Below, piece after piece: positions 10,522 to 49,831 of a stretch of DNA of 64,000 bases (positions within the stretch are counted from its first letter, which is position 1; each line of letters opens with the position of its first letter). The notes below the pieces were generated by a model. It was not told the origin of the DNA. It saw only the letters and a list, made by a program, of their open reading frames with translations, and ran no database searches. Both the position numbers and the translations under genes were made by a program. The stretch spans positions 4,654-68,653 of the forward strand of contig QZJN01000003.1 of assembly GCA_003599335.1 (NCBI GenBank). Reading direction: 5' to 3'. This stretch comes from Candidatus Parcubacteria bacterium. GTDB lineage: Bacteria; Patescibacteriota; Minisyncoccia; SURF-38.

Positions 10522-10954
10522 ACGCTCAGCTGGCCTGATTTTATTTAATGAAGCCAGAGAAGGAAGACGTTATCTGGTTTTGCATTCCACGCCATCGCCC
10601 GAATACCCTGATTTTTGGGATTTTTCCAAAGGAGTTCTTGATGGAAATGAGAAGGGTGTCGAAGCTGCTCGCCGTGAAGCCCAAGAAGAAACAGGAATAA
10701 CAGACCTCGATATTATTGAGGGTTTTAAATATACTGCTCGTTATTTCAGAAAAAATCGTAATGGAAAAGGCATTATTCCAAAGTTTGTCGCTATGTTTTT
10801 GGCCAGGACCGATAAAAAAGAAGTAAAGCTTTCATGGGAGCATGATAAATTTGAATGGTTAACTTATGAAGAGGCGCTTAATAGAATTTCAAACAAAGAA
10901 ATAAAAAAATCTTTGGAAGCCGCGGAAGATTTTTTAAATAAAAATGACATTTGA
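10511..10954 (+). CDS. NUDIX hydrolase
   Basis: Nudix box G-x5-E-x7-REAQEETGI present. Confidence 0.8.
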   Translation: MPVERSAGLILFNEAREGRRYLVLHSTPSPEYPDFWDFSKGVLDGNEKGVEAARREAQEETGITDLDIIEGFKYTARYFRKNRNGKGIIPKFVAMFLARTDKKEVKLSWEHDKFEWLTYEEALNRISNKEIKKSLEAAEDFLNKNDI

Positions 10955-11390
10955 ACATTCAGCAGGAGCAATAATATTCTTTAGAAGGCGACATAGTTTT
11001 TCTGTGCAGGCAGGTCTTGACTTCTTGCTTGTGCGGTATGCCAAGCGAGGTGGTTTTCGATGGGATTATGTAAAGGGTGGGGTGGAGAAAGGAGAAACTT
11101 CTCTTGCAGCAATGCTTCGAGAGGTCCGAGAAGAAACCGGGATAAAATATCCCCGTTACATCAGGGGTTTTCACCGTGCTATTAAGTGGCATTATCAGCG
11201 GGCCGGAAAGCCTTATTTTAAAACTGTCGATTTTTATCTTGTTGAATCTCCGACACGAAAAGTTTCTTTAAGCCCGGAACATAGTGCTTACGCCTGGATG
11301 CCTTACCAGGTAACTTTACGCCGTTTGAAACACAAAAACGCAAGAGAAATTTTGCAAAAAGCCTATGAGTTTTTGACAAAACAAAAATAA
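10944..11390 (+). CDS. NUDIX hydrolase (second, tandem paralog)
   Basis: Nudix box GGVEKGETSLAAMLREVREETGI. Overlaps the previous gene by 11 nt. Confidence 0.75.
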   Translation: MTFEHSAGAIIFFRRRHSFSVQAGLDFLLVRYAKRGGFRWDYVKGGVEKGETSLAAMLREVREETGIKYPRYIRGFHRAIKWHYQRAGKPYFKTVDFYLVESPTRKVSLSPEHSAYAWMPYQVTLRRLKHKNAREILQKAYEFLTKQK

Positions 11391-11478
11391 GAAATGTTCT
11401 GACATTTCTTGAATTTCCGTCGCTTAACCATCGCAAAAAATTTTGTGTGGCCTCGCTAGGAAATATAGCCGGGCCTTC
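11388..11478 (+). repeat. Copy A of a ~90-nt repeated intergenic element (hairpin AGAAATG..CATTTCT followed by TTGAAtTTCCGTC..GGCcTCGcTAGGAAaTATA)
   Basis: Shares about 35 nt at roughly 90% identity, plus a second conserved block, with 48950-49045. Confidence 0.5.
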
Positions 11479-11484
11479 TTTATT

Positions 11485-11832
11485 TTACTTTTTTATTCGG
11501 TTTGTGAGTTCGTTAAATATCTCTGGATGATTCATTGCCAGCTCGGAAAGAATTTTTCGGTCGATTTTGATATTGGCTTTTTTCAGATCACCCATGAATT
11601 TAGAGTAGTTTAAACCCTTGGTTCTTAGGGCCGCATTAATGCGTAGTTGCCATAATCTTCTGAAGTCTCTTTTCTTTAGCTTTCTTGATACGAACTGATA
11701 AGTCCATTTTTTCAAGAGAGCTTCTTTTGCCAGCCGTTCCTTGTTTTTGAGGCCGCCACGAAAACCCTTGGTTTCTTTGAGAAACTTTCTCCGGCGTTTT
11801 AATGCATGAACCGCTCCTTTTACTCTGGCCAT
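11485..11832 (-). CDS. rplT: 50S ribosomal protein L20
   Basis: MARVKGAVHALKRRRKFLK... typical bL20 N-terminus. infC-rpmI-rplT order. Confidence 0.9.
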   Translation of the reverse strand: MARVKGAVHALKRRRKFLKETKGFRGGLKNKERLAKEALLKKWTYQFVSRKLKKRDFRRLWQLRINAALRTKGLNYSKFMGDLKKANIKIDRKILSELAMNHPEIFNELTNRIKK

Positions 11833-16309: not shown

Positions 16310-16489
16310 CCTACAACTCTCACCAACTTCCGTTGGCTCGGTCGCAGGCCCGCCTCGCGGTTTGGCTCGCCTGTCGCTCGCCAAACATCGCTCCGGCATT
16401 CAACTCGGCTCGCGAGTAAAGCAGTTTACTCGCTTCTCATCTCCACATAAATCAAAAATTACCCAGCATTTATTGGGTAATTTTTGCTT
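16310..16489 (-). mobile_element. 180-bp GC-rich remnant segment between the tmRNA 3' end and its displaced 19-nt copy; carries the hairpin GCGAGTAAA..TTTACTCGC and the core GAGTTGAATGCCGGA shared with the tRNA-Leu-associated element
   Basis: Hairpin at 16412-16433 (plus-strand coordinates). The 15-nt core at 16392-16406 is the reverse complement of 51199-51213. A tmRNA terminator hairpin lies at 16462-16490. Confidence 0.5.
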
Positions 16490-16786
16490 GTGGAGATGGG
16501 CGGAGTTGAACCGCCGTCCGGAAGAAGCTTGATGACAAAGTTTCTACGAATGTACCCCCGTACGTGGGAGAGACGCTAAAAAGTTCAGTGCCTGCTTGCG
16601 CAGGCGCGCTCAATATATAACACCGGTTTTCTGCCCATTGAGCATCAGCAGGCCGATGGGCTTACTTAAGCGTAAGCCAGTGCCAAGTTTTTGTTGGCAG
16701 TTATAAGTTTTGCACCAGATTTACAAGTTAGTGCAGCTTGATTCGCGCTTTGTCAGAACATTCATCCGTCGAAGCCCGACATCCCC
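16488..16786 (-). ncRNA. ssrA: tmRNA (SsrA), one-piece
   Basis: Minus-strand 5' GGGGAUGUCGGGCUUCGACGG, like the canonical tmRNA 5' end. The 3' end is ..GGACGGCGGUUCAACUCCGCCCAUCUCCA(CA), with a G3:U acceptor pair. The internal tag reading frame is GCC AAC AAA AAC UUG GCA CUG GCU UAC GCU UAA, giving ANKNLALAYA. smpB is immediately upstream. Confidence 0.85.
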
Positions 16787-24971: not shown

Positions 24972-26294
24972 ATGAAAGAAAAATCTCAAAACAATTTAAT
25001 GGATAAAGTTATTTCGCTTTGTAAACGAAGGGGTTTTATATTTCCCGGTTCTGAAATTTACGGAGGGCTTGCCAACTCCTGGGACTATGGACCATTGGGC
25101 GTTGAACTAAAAAACAACATCAAACAAATGTGGTGGGAGCGCTTTGTGCATCAAAGAGGCGACATTGTTGGCATTGACGCCGCTTTAATAATGAATCCTA
25201 AAGTGTGGGAAGCGAGTGGGCATTTAAAGGAATTTTCTGATCCTTTGGTCGAGTGTAAGGTTTGTCATGAGCGTTTTCGTGCCGACCAGAAAGATATTAT
25301 TGTAGAGCACGAAGAATTTCACGAAAAGCGCAAAGAATCTGCGGGATGGACCGAACCAAAACAATTCAATCTTATGTTTAAAACTTTTATTGGTCCGCTT
25401 CAGGATGAAAAATCAACTGCATATTTTCGTCCCGAAACCGCTCAAGCAATGTTTGTTAATTTTAAAAACGTTGTTGATACAACAAGACAAAACCTGCCAT
25501 TCGGTATTGCTCAAATTGGTAAGGCTTTTCGTAACGAAATTACTACTGGGAATTTTATTTTTCGTACTAAAGAATTCGAGCAGATGGAAATTGAGTATTT
25601 TATTGAAGAAAAAGACTGGCAAAATATTTTTGAAATGTGGCGTAAGGAAATGCTTTTTTGGATCAAAGATCTTGGGGTTAATTTAAAGAAGGTTCATGAA
25701 AGAGAAGTTCCAGACGGGGAACGGGCGCATTATTCCAAGAGAACCGTTGATTTTGATTACGAGTTTCCTTTTGGCAAAGAAGAGCTTTACGGTTTGGCTT
25801 ATCGGACAGATTTTGATTTAAGAAACCACGAGAAGGCTTCCGGTGTAAATCTTAAATATAAAGATGCAAAGACCGGCAAAGAGTTCTGGCCTCATGTCAT
25901 TGAACCAACGTGGGGTGTGGACAGGTCTTTATTAATTGTTTTGCTTGAGGCGTATCACGAAGAAGGAGATAGAGTCGTGCTTAAGCTTCCTTTAAGACTC
26001 GCTCCTTACAAAGTTGCAGTTTTTCCTTTGCTTGCAAACAAAGATAAGCTTGTAGAAAAAGCTAAAGAAATTTATAAAGATTTACAAAAAAATTTCTCGG
26101 TTGCCTGGGACGATCGGGGGAATATCGGTAAAAGGTATTATTCTCAAGATGAAATAGGAACTCCCTGGTGCATAACGGTTGATTTTGAGAGTCTTGAAAA
26201 CGATACAGTTACCGTCAGGGATAGAGATACCGCAAAACAGGAACGCATAAAGGTCGCTGGACTGACAACTTATTTTGAGGATAAGTTAAAATAA
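24972..26294 (+). CDS. glyQS: Glycyl-tRNA synthetase (alpha2 dimeric type)
   Basis: MKEKSQNNLMDKVISLCKRRGFIFPGSEIYGGLANSWDYGPLG.. canonical GlyRS N-terminus with class II motifs. Confidence 0.9.
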   Translation: MKEKSQNNLMDKVISLCKRRGFIFPGSEIYGGLANSWDYGPLGVELKNNIKQMWWERFVHQRGDIVGIDAALIMNPKVWEASGHLKEFSDPLVECKVCHERFRADQKDIIVEHEEFHEKRKESAGWTEPKQFNLMFKTFIGPLQDEKSTAYFRPETAQAMFVNFKNVVDTTRQNLPFGIAQIGKAFRNEITTGNFIFRTKEFEQMEIEYFIEEKDWQNIFEMWRKEMLFWIKDLGVNLKKVHEREVPDGERAHYSKRTVDFDYEFPFGKEELYGLAYRTDFDLRNHEKASGVNLKYKDAKTGKEFWPHVIEPTWGVDRSLLIVLLEAYHEEGDRVVLKLPLRLAPYKVAVFPLLANKDKLVEKAKEIYKDLQKNFSVAWDDRGNIGKRYYSQDEIGTPWCITVDFESLENDTVTVRDRDTAKQERIKVAGLTTYFEDKLK

Positions 26295-26299
26295 AATTA

Positions 26300-26395
26300 A
26301 TATTAATTTTCAATTTACAATTTCCAATCAATTTTCAATGACACAATTTATTAAACCATTTGAAAACTGAAAATTAGAAATTGAAAATTTTTTAA
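26300..26395. repeat. Empty copy of an imperfect inverted-repeat element built from TTGAAAAT/ATTTTCAA units (about 35-nt arms, 22-nt spacer)
   Basis: Left arm ATTTTCAATTTACAATTTCCAATCAATTTTCAATG and right arm CATTTGAAAACTGAAAATTAGAAATTGAAAAT are near reverse complements. Same family as the arms flanking 47745..48113. Confidence 0.5.
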
Positions 26396-46454: not shown

Positions 46455-47702
46455 ATGAATTACGAAAATCTCAAAAAAGTTGATAAAGAATCCTATAAAA
46501 TTTTTGTTGCTGAACAGGCTCGCCAGCAAGATTACATTAATCTTATTCCTTCCGAAAATTATACTTCTGAAGCCGTTTTAGAGGCTTTAGCTTCGGTATT
46601 TGTAAATAAATATTCAGAAGGTTATCCAAAAGCGAGATATTACCCAGGCAATGAAAATGTTGATCAAATTGAGCTTTTGGGGCAAGAGCGGGCGAGGAAG
46701 CTTTTTAAATTGGGTAAAGAATGGTTTGTAAATGTTCAGCCGTATTCTGGCTCACCGGCAAATCTGGCGGTTTACATTGGGCTTTTAGGAAAGGACGATA
46801 CCGCTCTTGGGATGGAGCTTGCAGCGGGTGGACATTTGACTCACGGGCATAAGGTTTCGGCTTCTGGAAAATTATTTAATTTTATACAATATGGCGTTTC
46901 GTGGGATGGCGTGATTGATTATAAAAAACTTGAGGAGCTTGCAAAAGAAAAAAAACCCAAACTTATTGTTGCCGGCACAACCGCATACCCAAGAACTCTT
47001 GATTTTAAGAGATTCAAACAAATTGCAAATTCCGTGAAAGCTTTATTGATGGTTGATATGGCTCACATTGCCGGGCTTGTGGCCGCCGGAGTCCATCCTT
47101 CGCCGTTTCCTTATGCCGATATTGTTACAACAACAACCCATAAAACGTTGAGGGGTCCAAGAGGCGCAATTATTTTTGCAAAAAACAAAGAGTTGGCCGA
47201 AAAGATAGACAGGGCTGTTTTCCCCGGTATTCAGGGTGGGCCTCACGATAATCAGACTCTTGCTATTGCCGCTGCCCTTAAAGAAGCCGCTTCAGAGAAG
47301 TTTCAAAAGTATGCTTCTAATATAGTCAGAAATGCGAAAATTTTGAGTATTGAGCTTTCTAAGCACGGTTTTGAGCTTGTGAGCGGGGGAACGGATAATC
47401 ACTTGATGCTTATTGATTTAAAAAATAAAGGAATTTCCGGTAGGCAAGCCGAAGAATGGCTCTATCAGGCCGGAATTATTGTAAATAGAAATGCGGTGCC
47501 TTTTGATCCGAGAAAACCAATAGACCCATCGGGTATTCGGTTGGGGACTCCGGCGGTAACGACAAGGGGAATGGGCAAGTCGGAAATGAAAAAAATTGCA
47601 ACTTGGATAAAAGAAGTTATTTTTAATCCGAAATCAGTAAATAAGGTTAGAAAAGAAACGTTATCTTTAACTAAAAAGTTTCCACTTTCATACAGGTTTT
47701 AA
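46455..47702 (+). CDS. glyA: Serine hydroxymethyltransferase
   Basis: Canonical SHMT blocks: YSEGYP, GGHLTHGH, TTTHKTLRGPRG (PLP lysine). Confidence 0.9.
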   Translation: MNYENLKKVDKESYKIFVAEQARQQDYINLIPSENYTSEAVLEALASVFVNKYSEGYPKARYYPGNENVDQIELLGQERARKLFKLGKEWFVNVQPYSGSPANLAVYIGLLGKDDTALGMELAAGGHLTHGHKVSASGKLFNFIQYGVSWDGVIDYKKLEELAKEKKPKLIVAGTTAYPRTLDFKRFKQIANSVKALLMVDMAHIAGLVAAGVHPSPFPYADIVTTTTHKTLRGPRGAIIFAKNKELAEKIDRAVFPGIQGGPHDNQTLAIAAALKEAASEKFQKYASNIVRNAKILSIELSKHGFELVSGGTDNHLMLIDLKNKGISGRQAEEWLYQAGIIVNRNAVPFDPRKPIDPSGIRLGTPAVTTRGMGKSEMKKIATWIKEVIFNPKSVNKVRKETLSLTKKFPLSYRF

Positions 47703-47704
47703 AG

Positions 47705-47748
47705 AATTTTCAATTTCCAATTTCAAATTTTCAATCAATTTTCAATGG
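47705..47748. repeat. Left inverted-repeat arm (AATTTTCAATTTCCAATTTCAAATTTTCAATCAATTTTCAATGG) of the IVS-like cassette
   Basis: Reverse-complementary in composition and units to 48095-48131. Confidence 0.5.
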
Positions 47749-48113
47749 ATCAAATCCAGAAAACAAAATACGATTTGGAGGATCGAACGGCTAAATTTGG
47801 GGAAGAGGTTATTAAGTTTTGTAAAGCTATCCATCAAAATACAATTACAAAACCACTAATTTCTCAGCTTGTTAGGTCTGCTACTAGCATCGGAGCAAAT
47901 TATATGGAAGCAAATGGAGCAAGTTCTCGAAAAGATTTTAGAAACAAGATTTTTATTTGTAAGAAAGAATCTTAAGAAACTAAGCACTGGCTAAGGATGC
48001 TTTTAGAGGCTATGCCGAATAAAAAAGATGAGATACAAGGTTTATGGCGAGAGGTGCAAGAGCTAACTTTAATTTTTCAAAAGATTATCACGTCATTGAA
48101 AATTGAAAATTAA
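47745..48113 (+). pseudogene. Four-helix-bundle protein gene (TIGR02436, 23S rRNA intervening-sequence protein family) interrupted by an in-frame TAA at 47973-47975
   Basis: ORF 47745..47975 (..SIGANYMEANGASSRKDFRNKIFICKKES*) continues in the same frame after the TAA as ETKHWLRMLLEAMPNKKDEIQGLWREVQELTLIFQKIITSLKIEN*. Together these reconstitute the canonical ~122-aa family, including KExxETxxWL. Confidence 0.6.
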
Positions 48114-48131
48114 TAATTGAAAATTTTGAAT
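48095..48131. repeat. Right inverted-repeat arm (CATTGAAAATTGAAAATTAATAATTGAAAATTTTGAATTT) of the IVS-like cassette
   Basis: Pairs with 47705-47748. Confidence 0.5.
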
Positions 48132-48133
48132 TT

Positions 48134-48952
48134 ATGATTATTTCCGGCCGCGAAATGGCCCACAAAGTTTTAAAGAAATTAACCTTAACTTGGCCGCGAG
48201 TTAAAAAGCAGCCCTCTTTAGGTATTATTTTGGTTGGGGAAAATCCAGCATCTTTATCTTTTATTCGAGAAAAAGAAAGGGCTGCCGAAACCGTGGGTAT
48301 TGATTATCGTATTTATGAATTTCCATATTCTGTTTCTACAAATAATCTAAAAAAGAAATTTAAAAGTCTCCTTAAAAAACATACCGCTTGGATTATTCAG
48401 TTGCCTTTGCCAAGGCACATACTTTCTCAAGAGATTTTAGATTTAATCCCATCAGAAAAGGATGCGGATGTGCTTTCGGCTCATTCTTGGTTGCATTTTT
48501 TAGCAGGTTCCAAGATTTTACCGCCGGCAGTTGGAGCCGTTGAGGAAATTTTTAGGCAGTATAAAGTAAAGCCCAAAGGCAAAACTGCAATTGTTGTTGG
48601 GTTTGGCCCTTTGGTTGGCCAGCCAGTTGCTTTTTGGTTGGCGCAACAGAAAGCAAGGGTTAATGTTATTAACGAGGGCCAAAAAAAACCAGAAAATTTT
48701 TTAAAGAAAGCGGATATAATTGTAAGCGGAGTTGGTAAGGCTCATCTCATAAGAGGGGATCATATAAAAAAAGGAGCTGTGGTAATTGATTTTGGTTTTG
48801 CCAAGAAAGACGGCAGGTTTGTCGGGGATGTTGATTTTGTTTCGGTTGCCAAAAGGGCTCGCATTGTGACGCCGGTTCCCGGAGGAGCAGGTCCTTTAAC
48901 CGTGGCGATGCTTATGAAGAATATTTTTGTATTAACAATGAATCAAAAGTAA
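48134..48952 (+). CDS. folD: Bifunctional methylenetetrahydrofolate dehydrogenase/cyclohydrolase
   Basis: FolD N-terminal catalytic and C-terminal NAD(P)-binding blocks (GVGKAHL.., VTPVPGGAGPLTVAML). Confidence 0.9.
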   Translation: MIISGREMAHKVLKKLTLTWPRVKKQPSLGIILVGENPASLSFIREKERAAETVGIDYRIYEFPYSVSTNNLKKKFKSLLKKHTAWIIQLPLPRHILSQEILDLIPSEKDADVLSAHSWLHFLAGSKILPPAVGAVEEIFRQYKVKPKGKTAIVVGFGPLVGQPVAFWLAQQKARVNVINEGQKKPENFLKKADIIVSGVGKAHLIRGDHIKKGAVVIDFGFAKKDGRFVGDVDFVSVAKRARIVTPVPGGAGPLTVAMLMKNIFVLTMNQK

Positions 48953-49045
48953 GAAATGCATACATTTCTTGAAATTCCGTCACTCGCCCCAGATATCCGC
49001 TTAAGGCTGATGTCTGTTGGCTCGTTAGGAATTATAAAAGGTTAT
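48950..49045 (+). repeat. Copy B of the ~90-nt repeated intergenic element
   Basis: TAAGAAATGCATACATTTCTTGAAATTCCGTCACT...TGGCTCGTTAGGAATTATA matches 11388-11478. Confidence 0.5.
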
Positions 49046-49084
49046 GAAGAGAAGAAAAGCTAAAACAATAGTTTATATTCAACT

Positions 49085-49624
49085 ATGATAATTTCAGATT
49101 CGGCTTTAACTTTAAAAATCCATTTTTTGGCGGGGAATTTTATTTGGCTTGATTGGATAATTGTTTTTTTTGGGGGTTATTTTGAATATTTACTATTAGC
49201 TTTCTTGTTGGGTTTATTGCTTTTGAGCAAAAATAGCAGGATTCAATATTGGAGAATGATTGCGGTCGGTTTGATTGCGGCTTTATTTTCAAGATTTGCG
49301 GTTGCTGAAACGATAAGGGCTTTGTATCCTCGTGCGAGACCTTTTGAGATTTTTGAATTTCAGCCTCTCATACTTCACGAGACAACGTCGGGATTTCCTT
49401 CGGGTCACGCCAGTTTCTATTTTGCTTTGGCGACTATAATTTTTCTTTATGATCGTAAGCTTGGTGGTTGGTTTTTTGTCGGAGCAACTTTAATTTCTTT
49501 TGCCAGGGTTGCGGCCGGGATTCATTTTTTGGGCGATATATTACTTGGATTTTCGGTTGGAGTTTTAAGCGCAGTTTTTATTTATAAACTCGCTTGTAAA
49601 AGATTTCCAAATTTGGCAAAATAA
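49085..49624 (+). CDS. PAP2 family membrane phosphatase (undecaprenyl-diphosphatase-like)
   Basis: PAP2 motifs: YPRARP, PSGHAS, and SFARVAAGIHFLGD (SRxxxxxHxxxD). Confidence 0.7.
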   Translation: MIISDSALTLKIHFLAGNFIWLDWIIVFFGGYFEYLLLAFLLGLLLLSKNSRIQYWRMIAVGLIAALFSRFAVAETIRALYPRARPFEIFEFQPLILHETTSGFPSGHASFYFALATIIFLYDRKLGGWFFVGATLISFARVAAGIHFLGDILLGFSVGVLSAVFIYKLACKRFPNLAK

Positions 49625-49747: not shown

Positions 49748-49830
49748 GGGCAGGTGGCGGAATGGCAGACGCGCTGGACTCAAAATCCAGTGAGAGTAAT
49801 CTCGTGAGGGTTCAACTCCCTCCCTGCCCA
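49748..49830 (+). tRNA. tRNA-Leu (anticodon CAA), class II with long variable arm; CCA not encoded
   Basis: GGGCAGG acceptor stem pairing with CCTGCCC then A. D-arm GUGGCGGAAUGGCAGACGCG resembles Leu tRNAs. Anticodon stem-loop CTGGA-CTCAAAA-TCCAG. Long variable arm. T-arm GAGGG-TTCAACT-CCCTC. Confidence 0.8.
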
Positions 49831-49831
49831 C
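49813..49831 (+). repeat. tRNA-Leu 3'-terminal 19 nt (CAACTCCCTCCCTGCCCAC), directly repeated at 51269-51287 (att-like)
   Basis: Exact 19-nt identity between the two positions. Confidence 0.7.

Follow-up and report, generated by a model that had tools for sequence, protein, structure and literature searches.

A probable small insertion element with two hairpins at gene ends in Patescibacteria

Two look-alike non-coding stretches at gene 3' ends in a 64-kb stretch of Candidatus Parcubacteria DNA (contig QZJN01000003.1; the whole stretch, positions 1-64,000, is called the window) are probably copies of one small, non-autonomous, non-coding insertion element. We read the unit as an insertion element because empty sites were found at secA, between relatives whose SecA proteins are 90% identical, and at both window loci. 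It folds into two hairpins, here P1 and P2, recurs widely in Patescibacteria, and part of it matches the end of secA. Throughout, L numbers denote loci of the family or of relatives and P numbers denote SecA proteins.

The window copies and their family

A sequence-only reading of this DNA had picked out two similar stretches of about 90 nt, one after a NUDIX gene and one after folD. Both are real and in the places it gave: copy A at 11385-11468 and copy B at 48947-49037, both on the + strand. Each does begin at a stop codon, the TAA of the NUDIX gene (10944-11390) and that of folD (48134-48952); the right-hand limits of 11478 and 49045 were about 10 nt too far, the real ends being ATAG (11468) in copy A and ATAA (49037) in copy B. 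Nor is the first hairpin loop five nucleotides long, as had been read: copy B has a loop of 4 nt, and copy A one of 6 nt, or of 4 nt with the additional T-A pair that its predicted fold contains.

The likeness of the copies is concentrated in two blocks. Block 1, CATTTCTTGAAWTTCCGTCRCT, is 22 nt long and has exactly two matches in the window (11403-11424 and 48963-48984, both on the + strand); 100 shuffles gave an expectation of zero, even with three mismatches tolerated. Block 2, GCTCGYTAGGAAWTATA (11451-11467 and 49020-49036), is not significant alone, yet its spacing from block 1 corresponds in both copies. Our covariance model R1, whose strand is the window minus strand, scores copy A at 86.6 bits (E ~1e-14) and copy B at 64.5 bits (E ~1e-10); run with filters off, the model found no third copy in the 64-kb window.

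In the direction of the upstream gene, the unit consists of a left junction (..AAAW-ATAA-G), P1, a GAA linker, P2 and a right junction, ATAA(AAA). Copy A lies between the second NUDIX hydrolase gene (NUDIX-2) and the convergent rplT-rpmI-infC operon, and copy B between folD and a PAP2 phosphatase gene. Their parts are as follows.

11385-11468, + strand: copy A, whole element, in the order left junction AAATAA, P1, GAA, P2, right junction ATAG (orientation of the upstream gene)
11388-11390, + strand: TAA stop of NUDIX-2 (ORF, open reading frame, 10944-11390), which is the TAA of the left junction (..AAAAA-TAA-G..)
11389-11410, + strand: P1 hairpin of copy A, AAGAAATGT-TCTG-ACATTTCTT; fold -6.7 kcal/mol on either strand
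11413-11464, - strand: P2 of copy A, a long imperfect hairpin; basal ATTTCC (11413-18) with GGAAAT (11459-64), 2-bp GC helix 11422-23 with 11455-56, conserved internal loops, variable tip
11465-11468, + strand: right junction of copy A, ATAG, a degenerate ATAA; 17 nt short of the rplT stop (convergent gene, 11485-11832, minus strand)
48947-49037, + strand: copy B, whole element, between folD and the PAP2 gene
48950-48952, + strand: TAA stop of folD (ORF 48134-48952), which is the TAA of the left junction
48951-48970, + strand: P1 hairpin of copy B, AAGAAATG-CATA-CATTTCTT; -5.4 kcal/mol; loop 2 nt shorter than the family consensus
48973-49033, - strand: P2 hairpin of copy B; basal AATTCC (48973-78) with GGAATT (49028-33); the 2-bp helix has G-C replaced by A-T, a compensatory double change; tip long and divergent
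49034-49037, + strand: right junction of copy B, ATAA, inside TATAAAA; followed by a 14-codon ORF (49044-49088) and the PAP2 gene (49085-49624)

We searched for further copies, as the sequence-only reading had proposed, in genomes with an exact pattern (one genome per species) and in metagenomes with a looser pattern that ignores P1. The genome scan returned 55 loci, of which about 35 are Patescibacteria metagenome-assembled genomes (MAGs) with a complete, near-identical unit of ~87 nt, and the rest are chance hits within the coding sequence of other phyla. Carriers include Azambacteria, Yanofsky-, Portnoy-, Taylor-, Lipton- and Magasanikbacteria and other Parcubacteria; one Azambacteria MAG has seven copies, six found by pattern and the seventh by the covariance model. 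The metagenomes, groundwater samples such as Hainich, Rifle and NC_groundwater among them, gave at least 120 loci and the two sources together at least 135 distinct copies. The element is a Patescibacteria (Parcubacteria)-specific family of ~80-95-nt units, small and non-coding, with no conserved ORF, multicopy, and varying in presence among relatives. That just two copies lie within the 64-kb window could have suggested a chance or purely local duplication, the scenario that the sequence-only reading itself named as its refutation; more than 100 copies in other genomes, with compensatory changes, refute it, and its probability is negligible.

The family matches no catalogued RNA that we could find. 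Rfam 15 returned only tmRNA and tRNA over the whole window at the gathering threshold, noise alone for both copies at E<=10, and nothing over the element at E<=1 in a near-consensus (L027), a tandem (L014) and a divergent (L034) locus. We found no prior description of the element in literature searches, and as far as these reach it is new to description. Kinship with tRNA or tmRNA was considered and no relationship was found. A phage or plasmid origin was likewise rejected: one short, dubious match to a viral contig was unconfirmed by the model, and BLAST against phages and plasmids was empty.

Two observations concern individual copies. Contigs L012 and L014, labelled 'uncultured Gammaproteobacteria bacterium', hold typical copies including a tandem pair, and are probably mis-binned or mislabelled Patescibacteria contigs. 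Some copies directly adjoin tRNA genes (L010:6046-6120, L012:4536-4600 and L034:5650-5760); in L010 the element-end TATAAT stands 5 nt ahead of the first base of the tRNA.

Fold, covariation and strand

The differences between copies A and B are compensatory. GAA-T-TTCC with GGAA-A-T in copy A corresponds to GAA-A-TTCC with GGAA-T-T in copy B, and a second set joins GTC-G-C with G-C-TAGG in copy A and GTC-A-C with G-T-TAGG in copy B. Since W pairs with W and R with Y across the blocks, the tail of block 1 forms one arm, and block 2 the other, of a single long hairpin, P2. The 'short hairpin' of the sequence-only reading therefore stands, as P1 at the stop codon, while its '3' tail' and second block are not separate features but the P2 arms, enclosing the divergent middle.

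The consensus P2 starts from a base of 6 bp, passes through a 3x2 loop, a GC/GC step and a 2x2 loop, and closes in a tip that varies. In an alignment of 103 copies fitted to the covariance model, 93.1% of cells hold standard pairs, against 77% in shuffles and ~40% with slid partners, and both sides change in 24 of the 30 pairs (470 cells); none of 500 shuffles reaches any of these measures, and an independent MAFFT alignment of 30 copies agrees. The covariation check proposed from the sequence alone is thereby positive, and the structure of the element is under selection. Both P1 and P2 are backed by covariation; one hairpin lies near each end, and there are no terminal inverted repeats. The basal helix of P2 occurs as AUUUCC/GGAAAU, AAUUCC/GGAAUU, AAUUGG/CCAAUU and AAUUGC/GCAAUU, its tip spans 18-48 nt and is always a hairpin, and P1 has 4-13 bp. 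The internal-loop nucleotides are near invariant, reading YA-GC-GA-G ... C-GA-GC-GAM on the window minus strand.

The fold favours one strand. The consensus reaches -18.1 kcal/mol on the minus strand vs -5.6 on the plus strand, and P2 is more stable on the antisense (minus) strand in 120 of 135 copies (means -23.3 vs -19.8). Read on the minus strand, the 2x2 loop forms a tandem G.A between G-C pairs; 36 copies have a CUUG tetraloop at the tip and 48 have UUUA.

These properties bear on the roles first suggested for the stretches. The element is a conserved, repeated and functional-looking module and not a product of chance; the terminator, small RNA and promoter roles are at most putative. A terminator for the upstream + strand genes finds no support, with no U-tract after P1 (GAAWUUCC) or P2 (AUAAAAA) and a terminator scan blank at both copies; because neither hairpin has a U-tract on the + strand, the element is not a canonical terminator for NUDIX or folD. 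P1 with a U-rich tail is terminator-like on the opposite strand only, and P1 is GC-rich in many family members and weak in the window (-6.7 and -5.4 kcal/mol).

The strand preference would also suit a unit that is a structured RNA first, read from the window minus strand, in which P1, with its U-rich tail, comes after P2 and acts as the intrinsic terminator; such an RNA would serve as a 3'-end or terminator module, or as a short cis-antisense RNA against the 3' end of the facing gene, and its spread would be secondary. The consensus energies, the G.A pairs in their G-C frame and the tetraloops of the minus strand agree with this, as does the AUAUUU or AUUUUU that follows P1 (mean 4.4 U in 8 nt). 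Copy A, moreover, is oriented to end the infC-rpmI-rplT operon and lies 17 nt past the rplT stop, where relatives have a GC-rich hairpin, and the loop nucleotides are very strongly conserved over distant lineages. A co-oriented gene lies upstream on the minus strand in only 37 of 123 copies (~30%), however, and in the dominant context (65 of 135) both neighbours are on the other strand, so that there is usually nothing to terminate. There is no conserved promoter upstream; conservation ends at UUAUA, too near the P2 base to be the -10 box of an RNA containing P2. The U-rich tail is explained by an A-rich target and the KKYK codons of secA (below), the window P1 hairpins, at -5 to -7 kcal/mol with 2 G-C pairs, failed the terminator scan, and the empty sites in close relatives make such an RNA dispensable at those loci. 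We consider an RNA-first reading unlikely.

The right-end TATAA(A) is a conceivable -10 box, and the repeat might then be a promoter carrier in which the terminal TATAA(A/T) serves the downstream gene, leaderless starts included. Of 123 copies, 86 have a co-directional gene beyond this end (median distance 77 nt), and several have an ATG 5-8 nt past TATAAA; that of copy B, at 49044 and 5 nt on, starts an ORF of 14 codons overlapping the start of PAP2. Most cases of TATAAA-N7-ATG, though, are the displaced secA remnant TAT AAA AAG TGY CAT GG.., no -35 element lies at a workable distance, and the promoter scan was blank at both copies. In copy A the neighbouring gene is convergent and the box has decayed to TATAG. 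A -10 box, besides, needs no 80-nt covarying structure, and we give a promoter-bearing repeat very little credence.

The 14-codon ORF itself (49044-49088, MKRRKAKTIVYIQL*) ends in a TGA that overlaps the PAP2 ATG (49085) in an ATGA arrangement, which could be translational coupling or a relic. A small protein from another ORF of copy B (48956-49063, 35 codons) was rejected, having no counterpart in copy A, where ATG TTC TGA stops immediately.

Insertion at secA and at other gene ends

The sequence of P1 is that of the last 6-8 codons of the SEC-C zinc motif of SecA (K-K/R-C-H/C-G-x-stop), and in a subset of copies the P1-side flank encodes the SecA C-terminus on the + strand (..AYGQRDPLVEYK..GRNDPCPCGSGKKYK). 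At secA the element lies between ...GSGKK and YKKC(H/C)Gx*, with the displaced native end after it, and Pfam finds a full-length SecA there, its SEC-C domain finishing at the last residue. P1 occurs as AAG CGC TGT CAC GGC GCT TGA (KRCHGA*), as AAG CGC TGT TGT GGC GCT TGA (KRCCGA*) and as AAG AAA TGC CAC GGC ATT TCT TGA (KKCHGIS*); the last is the family consensus and is present in the window in decayed form. In copy A the relic frame (11386-11412) reads NKKCSDIS*, with its relic TGA at 11410-11412, and is not translated into protein because it lies downstream of the NUDIX stop. The relic KKCHG frame of copy B is broken because the loop region is 2 nt short, a two-column gap in the alignment against the consensus.

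secA is the sole recurrent neighbour of the element (17 loci, in an all-against-all BLAST of 610 flanking ORFs). Copies linked to it number 18 of 136, so that ~87% of copies are at other sites. Directly behind 14 of these 18 comes a displaced remnant, TAT AAA AAG TGY (CAY/TGY) GGN … stop, or YKKC(H/C)Gx*; the same remnant follows 10 of 117 other copies, several of these being tandems or secA ends in decay. In one remnant the reading is KKCCYPKYG*, identical to the most frequent native ending among SecA proteins of Patescibacteria.

Protein endings predict the element. Among 118 full-length SecA relatives, six, scattered down the ranking, end in …YKRC[CH]GA, and the prediction that this ending means a resident element held in two of two cases, the model locating the element at the stop of secA with 58.9 and 54.1 bits. 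No element is present in three relatives with native endings (82%, 77% and 58% identity to the query; native ends include P0122 and P0124).

The closest comparison is between P0192 and P0202, whose SecA proteins are 90% identical and whose loci have synteny in common: one site is filled (L182) and the other empty (L183). The empty site reads GGA CAG AAG TAC AAA AAG TGC TGC GGG AAA TAA and the filled one GGG CAG AAA [TAT AAG CGC TGT TGC GGC GCA TGA AATTCC…GGAAT] TAT AAA AAG TGC TGC GGG AAA TAA, with the insert in brackets. The insert is ~80 nt long, the displaced remnant agrees with the relative's native end in 21/21 nt, and TATAA stands at both junctions. At secA the insert splits the zinc-motif codons yet brings a replacement C-terminus that leaves SecA intact. 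Further downstream in L182 (3985-4210) there is another GC-rich insert of ~190 nt, empty in Rfam, followed by a second remnant resembling a secA end, AAATACAACAAGCGTTGCGGGAAATAA (KYNKRCGK*); the arrangement points to nested insertion, by a different element, at one hotspot.

The window loci have empty counterparts as well: orthologous positions do not conserve the element, which is absent from both in the nearest relatives. In the nearest FolD relative (61% identity; L056) the order SHMT-folD-PAP2 is kept, with only 2 nt from folD to PAP2. In L184-L186, whose L20 proteins are 74-78% identical, PolX-NUDIX-NUDIX faces rplT-rpmI-infC with 6-7 nt between the stops and no model match, against 94 nt in the window. 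In two of these loci without copy A (L185:1190-1230 and L186:410-450), the last codons of NUDIX-2 hold a GC-rich hairpin between A- and T-runs that resembles a bidirectional terminator; the window lacks that NUDIX/rplT hairpin and has the element in its place.

Comparing filled with empty sites gives the inserted block as TATAAG-P1-GAA-P2..GGAAT, and the alignments show a discrete unit of ~80-95 nt that is gained or lost as a whole. Over 112 copies the left junction has the profile AAA-W-A-T|AAG(P1) and the right one (P2)|ATAAAAA, which implies an A-rich target of approximately AAAWATAAAAA with ATAA/TATAA repeated at both ends. Most copies have ATAA/TATAA at both junctions, where a target duplication and a specific target with a matching element end look alike. 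Read on the strand that folds better, the left flank has ..TTTTTATA and the element closes with ..CTTATA, which fits fixed insertion 3' of a pentanucleotide and a 4-5 bp duplication equally. Tandem copies are direct, head-to-tail, and have the ATAA junction in common.

The P1-side gene points into the element in 97 of 118 copies, at a median gap of -2 nt. The upstream ORF takes its stop codon from the junction TAA in 33 of the 103 copies that could be evaluated, as also in both window copies; in 23 it ends within P1, as it does at secA. Relative to the upstream gene, insertion has one fixed orientation. The orientation bias and the preference for gene ends may both follow from lysine-rich C-termini and TAA stops, which supply a strand-specific A-rich target in genomes nearly without intergenic space and could suffice alone.

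Mechanism, known relatives and meaning

If the unit is mobile, as we read it, the moving form would be a folded single strand that a trans-acting enzyme recognises. A hairpin-guided single-strand route is suggested because the element has no terminal inverted repeats, a hairpin near each end and strand asymmetry, because it inserts beside a pentanucleotide that also ends the element, and because its tandems are exact and head-to-tail. The likeliest route would be a 'peel-and-paste' of the HUH/Y1 type, as in IS200/IS605, with insertion 3' of TTATA on the antisense strand; that specific mechanism is nonetheless doubtful on our analysis. Copy A would have been placed at the NUDIX-2 stop, against the convergent rplT operon, and copy B at the folD stop, ahead of the PAP2 gene. 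As side-effects, P1 with its U-rich flank may terminate transcripts of the opposing strand, at copy A those of the rplT operon, and the terminal TATAAA could serve a downstream gene as a -10 box; such regulatory effects are possible but would be secondary to mobility.

Several points weigh against mobility or its details. The 2-14 kb around the copies contain no mobilising enzyme, no TnpA (Y1 HUH) gene and no autonomous or full-length parent, the neighbours being unrelated housekeeping genes. The ends are unlike those of known types, with no terminal inverted repeats and with 0-5 nt between hairpin and junction where IS608 has 19 and 10 nt. Reasoning from published IS200/IS605 behaviour (PMC5027513), co-orientation of genes with replication would put the active strand on the sense strand, the opposite of what the element suggests. 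Pairs of filled and empty sites give gain or loss but not its direction, and we assume insertion as the more parsimonious reading. The strand evidence is moderate: P2 has 152 G.U pairs on the antisense and 100 on the sense strand, P1 the reverse (32 vs 53), and much of the energy difference stems from few conserved positions. The window copies do not discriminate between strands, P2 folding at -15.3 kcal/mol on the minus and -14.2 on the plus strand in copy A, and at -20.8 and -22.7, slightly better on the plus strand, in copy B. Finally, internal-loop nucleotides are kept across very divergent lineages, beyond what most selfish repeats show, and a selected RNA function would also fit this.

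Among described systems, the miniature derivatives of IS200/IS605 (PATE) are similar in many respects; the features of that family and its single-strand 'peel-and-paste' transposition have been reviewed (PMC5027513). Like them, the element has no terminal inverted repeats, a hairpin near each end, a strand-specific fold and no coding capacity, and it sits in one orientation beside a short sequence, on the better-folding strand 3' of TTATA with its own end CTTATA, exactly where tandems abut. Unlike them, it has no TnpA gene or full-length parent in its flanks, its two hairpins are dissimilar, and it has a captured gene end, the secA codons, aboard. Its hairpins lie closer to the junctions than those of IS608, and its better-folding strand is antisense to genes, where lagging-strand targeting predicts the sense strand.

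Other small bacterial repeats share parts of this design. Repetitive extragenic palindromic (REP) sequences, REPINs with their RAYT enzymes, and BIMEs are short, imperfect, multicopy extragenic palindromes at gene 3' ends, whose hairpin is presumably recognised in trans and which may stabilise or terminate transcripts. The element resembles them in its position at gene 3' ends, its multiple copies and its imperfect palindrome. It differs in its density (~1 per 10-30 kb, two in the 64 kb here, vs hundreds per genome), in its foot, YAGCGAG, without a GTAG head, in its single or directly tandem copies in place of inverted doublets, in its greater length with two different hairpins, and in its conservation over a superphylum-level group and not one species or genus.

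Correia/NEMIS, ERIC, RUP and Rickettsia palindromic elements are small, non-autonomous and AT-rich, with a long stem-loop, and can bring promoter or terminator signals; the Rickettsia elements insert into coding sequence without destroying the protein. With classical miniature inverted-repeat transposable elements (MITEs), the element has in common its small size, lack of autonomy, AT-richness, short duplicated-looking target and long stem-loop. Its extremities are not inverted repeats, however, the left TATAAGCGC / TAAGAAATG and the right ..CTAGGAAWT not being reverse complements; its inverted repeat (P2) is internal, with P1 outside the palindrome yet within the inserted block, and its insertion is orientation-specific. 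Integrative elements at the 3' ends of conserved genes (tRNA, tmRNA, glmS) likewise replace a displaced end and leave the native one as a direct repeat, but the 'cargo' here is only a hairpin of ~60 nt, there is no integrase, and ~87% of copies are off secA.

The unit could also be a folded single-strand recombination site, of the integron attC or CTX-phage/Xer attP type, left by a tyrosine recombinase, lone copies being single attC sites without an integrase. Its fixed orientation at an ORF 3' end, overlapping the stop codon, is shared with attC, as is a hairpin of imperfect pairing whose basal helix is conserved, whose spacers are unpaired and whose tip varies (18-48 nt). The strand antisense to the ORF folds better, as it does in attC bottom strands. 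Missing, though, are the R''/R' boxes (RYYYAAC ... GTTRRRY): these positions read ..TTCCGTC.., with no AAC in the 5' arm, and mostly GCTAGGA, with few GTTAGGA, in the 3' arm. There are no cassette arrays and the neighbours are core genes (such as secA, folD, rplT and NUDIX). Filled sites, moreover, keep the hairpin intact and internal with the junctions outside it, when a crossover within a folded site would split the arms. A recombination site is in our view highly improbable.

Some further candidates were set aside. Prophage or island attachment sites, as direct repeats around 37.5 kb, were rejected with core genes in the interval (tmRNA, CTP synthase, SHMT) and the unit single at unrelated loci elsewhere. 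The variable and template repeats of a diversity-generating retroelement do not apply, the copies not being adenine-specific variants and no reverse transcriptase lying nearby. A retron was rejected on anatomy, TIGR or CRISPR arrays on the lack of arrays of short units, a hairpin ribozyme on loops that do not match, and a K-turn on the lack of a 3-nt bulge beside the G.A pairs.

The element groups with the small non-autonomous repeats of bacteria (MITE, REP, PATE), although it lacks what defines each named family wherever this could be tested. Tentatively, it may represent an undescribed class of hairpin-guided, orientation-specific element confined to Patescibacteria, with the universally conserved KKYK codons of the SecA zinc finger as its home target and a replacement C-terminus, carried in its terminal hairpin, that would avert harm to SecA; it would be moved by an enzyme as a folded single strand, and some copies would be co-opted as strand-specific terminators or antisense RNAs.

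The window holds other features apart from the two copies. In the gap between the SHMT gene and folD (47701-48127), a truncated gene for a '23S rRNA-intervening-sequence protein' (four-helix bundle, PF05635; ORF 47745-47975, stop 47973) is bracketed by inverted arrays of the heptad AATTTYC (47701-47747 on the + and 48096-48127 on the - strand), and the whole looks like a second, unrelated inserted cassette. The same arrays occur as an inverted pair without an ORF between two genes (26294-26391) and singly at 36357-36386 and 35530-35545, with 15 matches in the window vs 2.4 expected; these others may be empty or relic forms of the PF05635 cassette. A 215-nt direct repeat of 90% identity (39519-39733 and 39774-39988) lies inside a 601-codon ORF (39326-41131) and therefore belongs to a protein with a repeated domain. 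The tmRNA gene (16488-16786, - strand; tag peptide ANKNLALAYA) and a tRNA-Leu(CAA) gene (49748-49831, + strand) are both ordinary.

Genomes of the candidate phyla radiation (CPR) are tiny and usually described as poor in repeats and mobile DNA; if our reading holds, an active small mobile element persists there. Its insertion would account for odd SecA C-termini (…YKRCHGA or …KKCHGIS in place of …KKCCYPKYG) and for short 'orphan' KKCHG remnants downstream of secA, and would extend self-healing insertion, known for islands that target tRNA genes, to an 80-nt element within a protein-coding gene. The covariance model, combined with phylogenetic profiling, offers a route to the mobilising enzyme, and the element may serve as a marker for strain-level variation in CPR populations.

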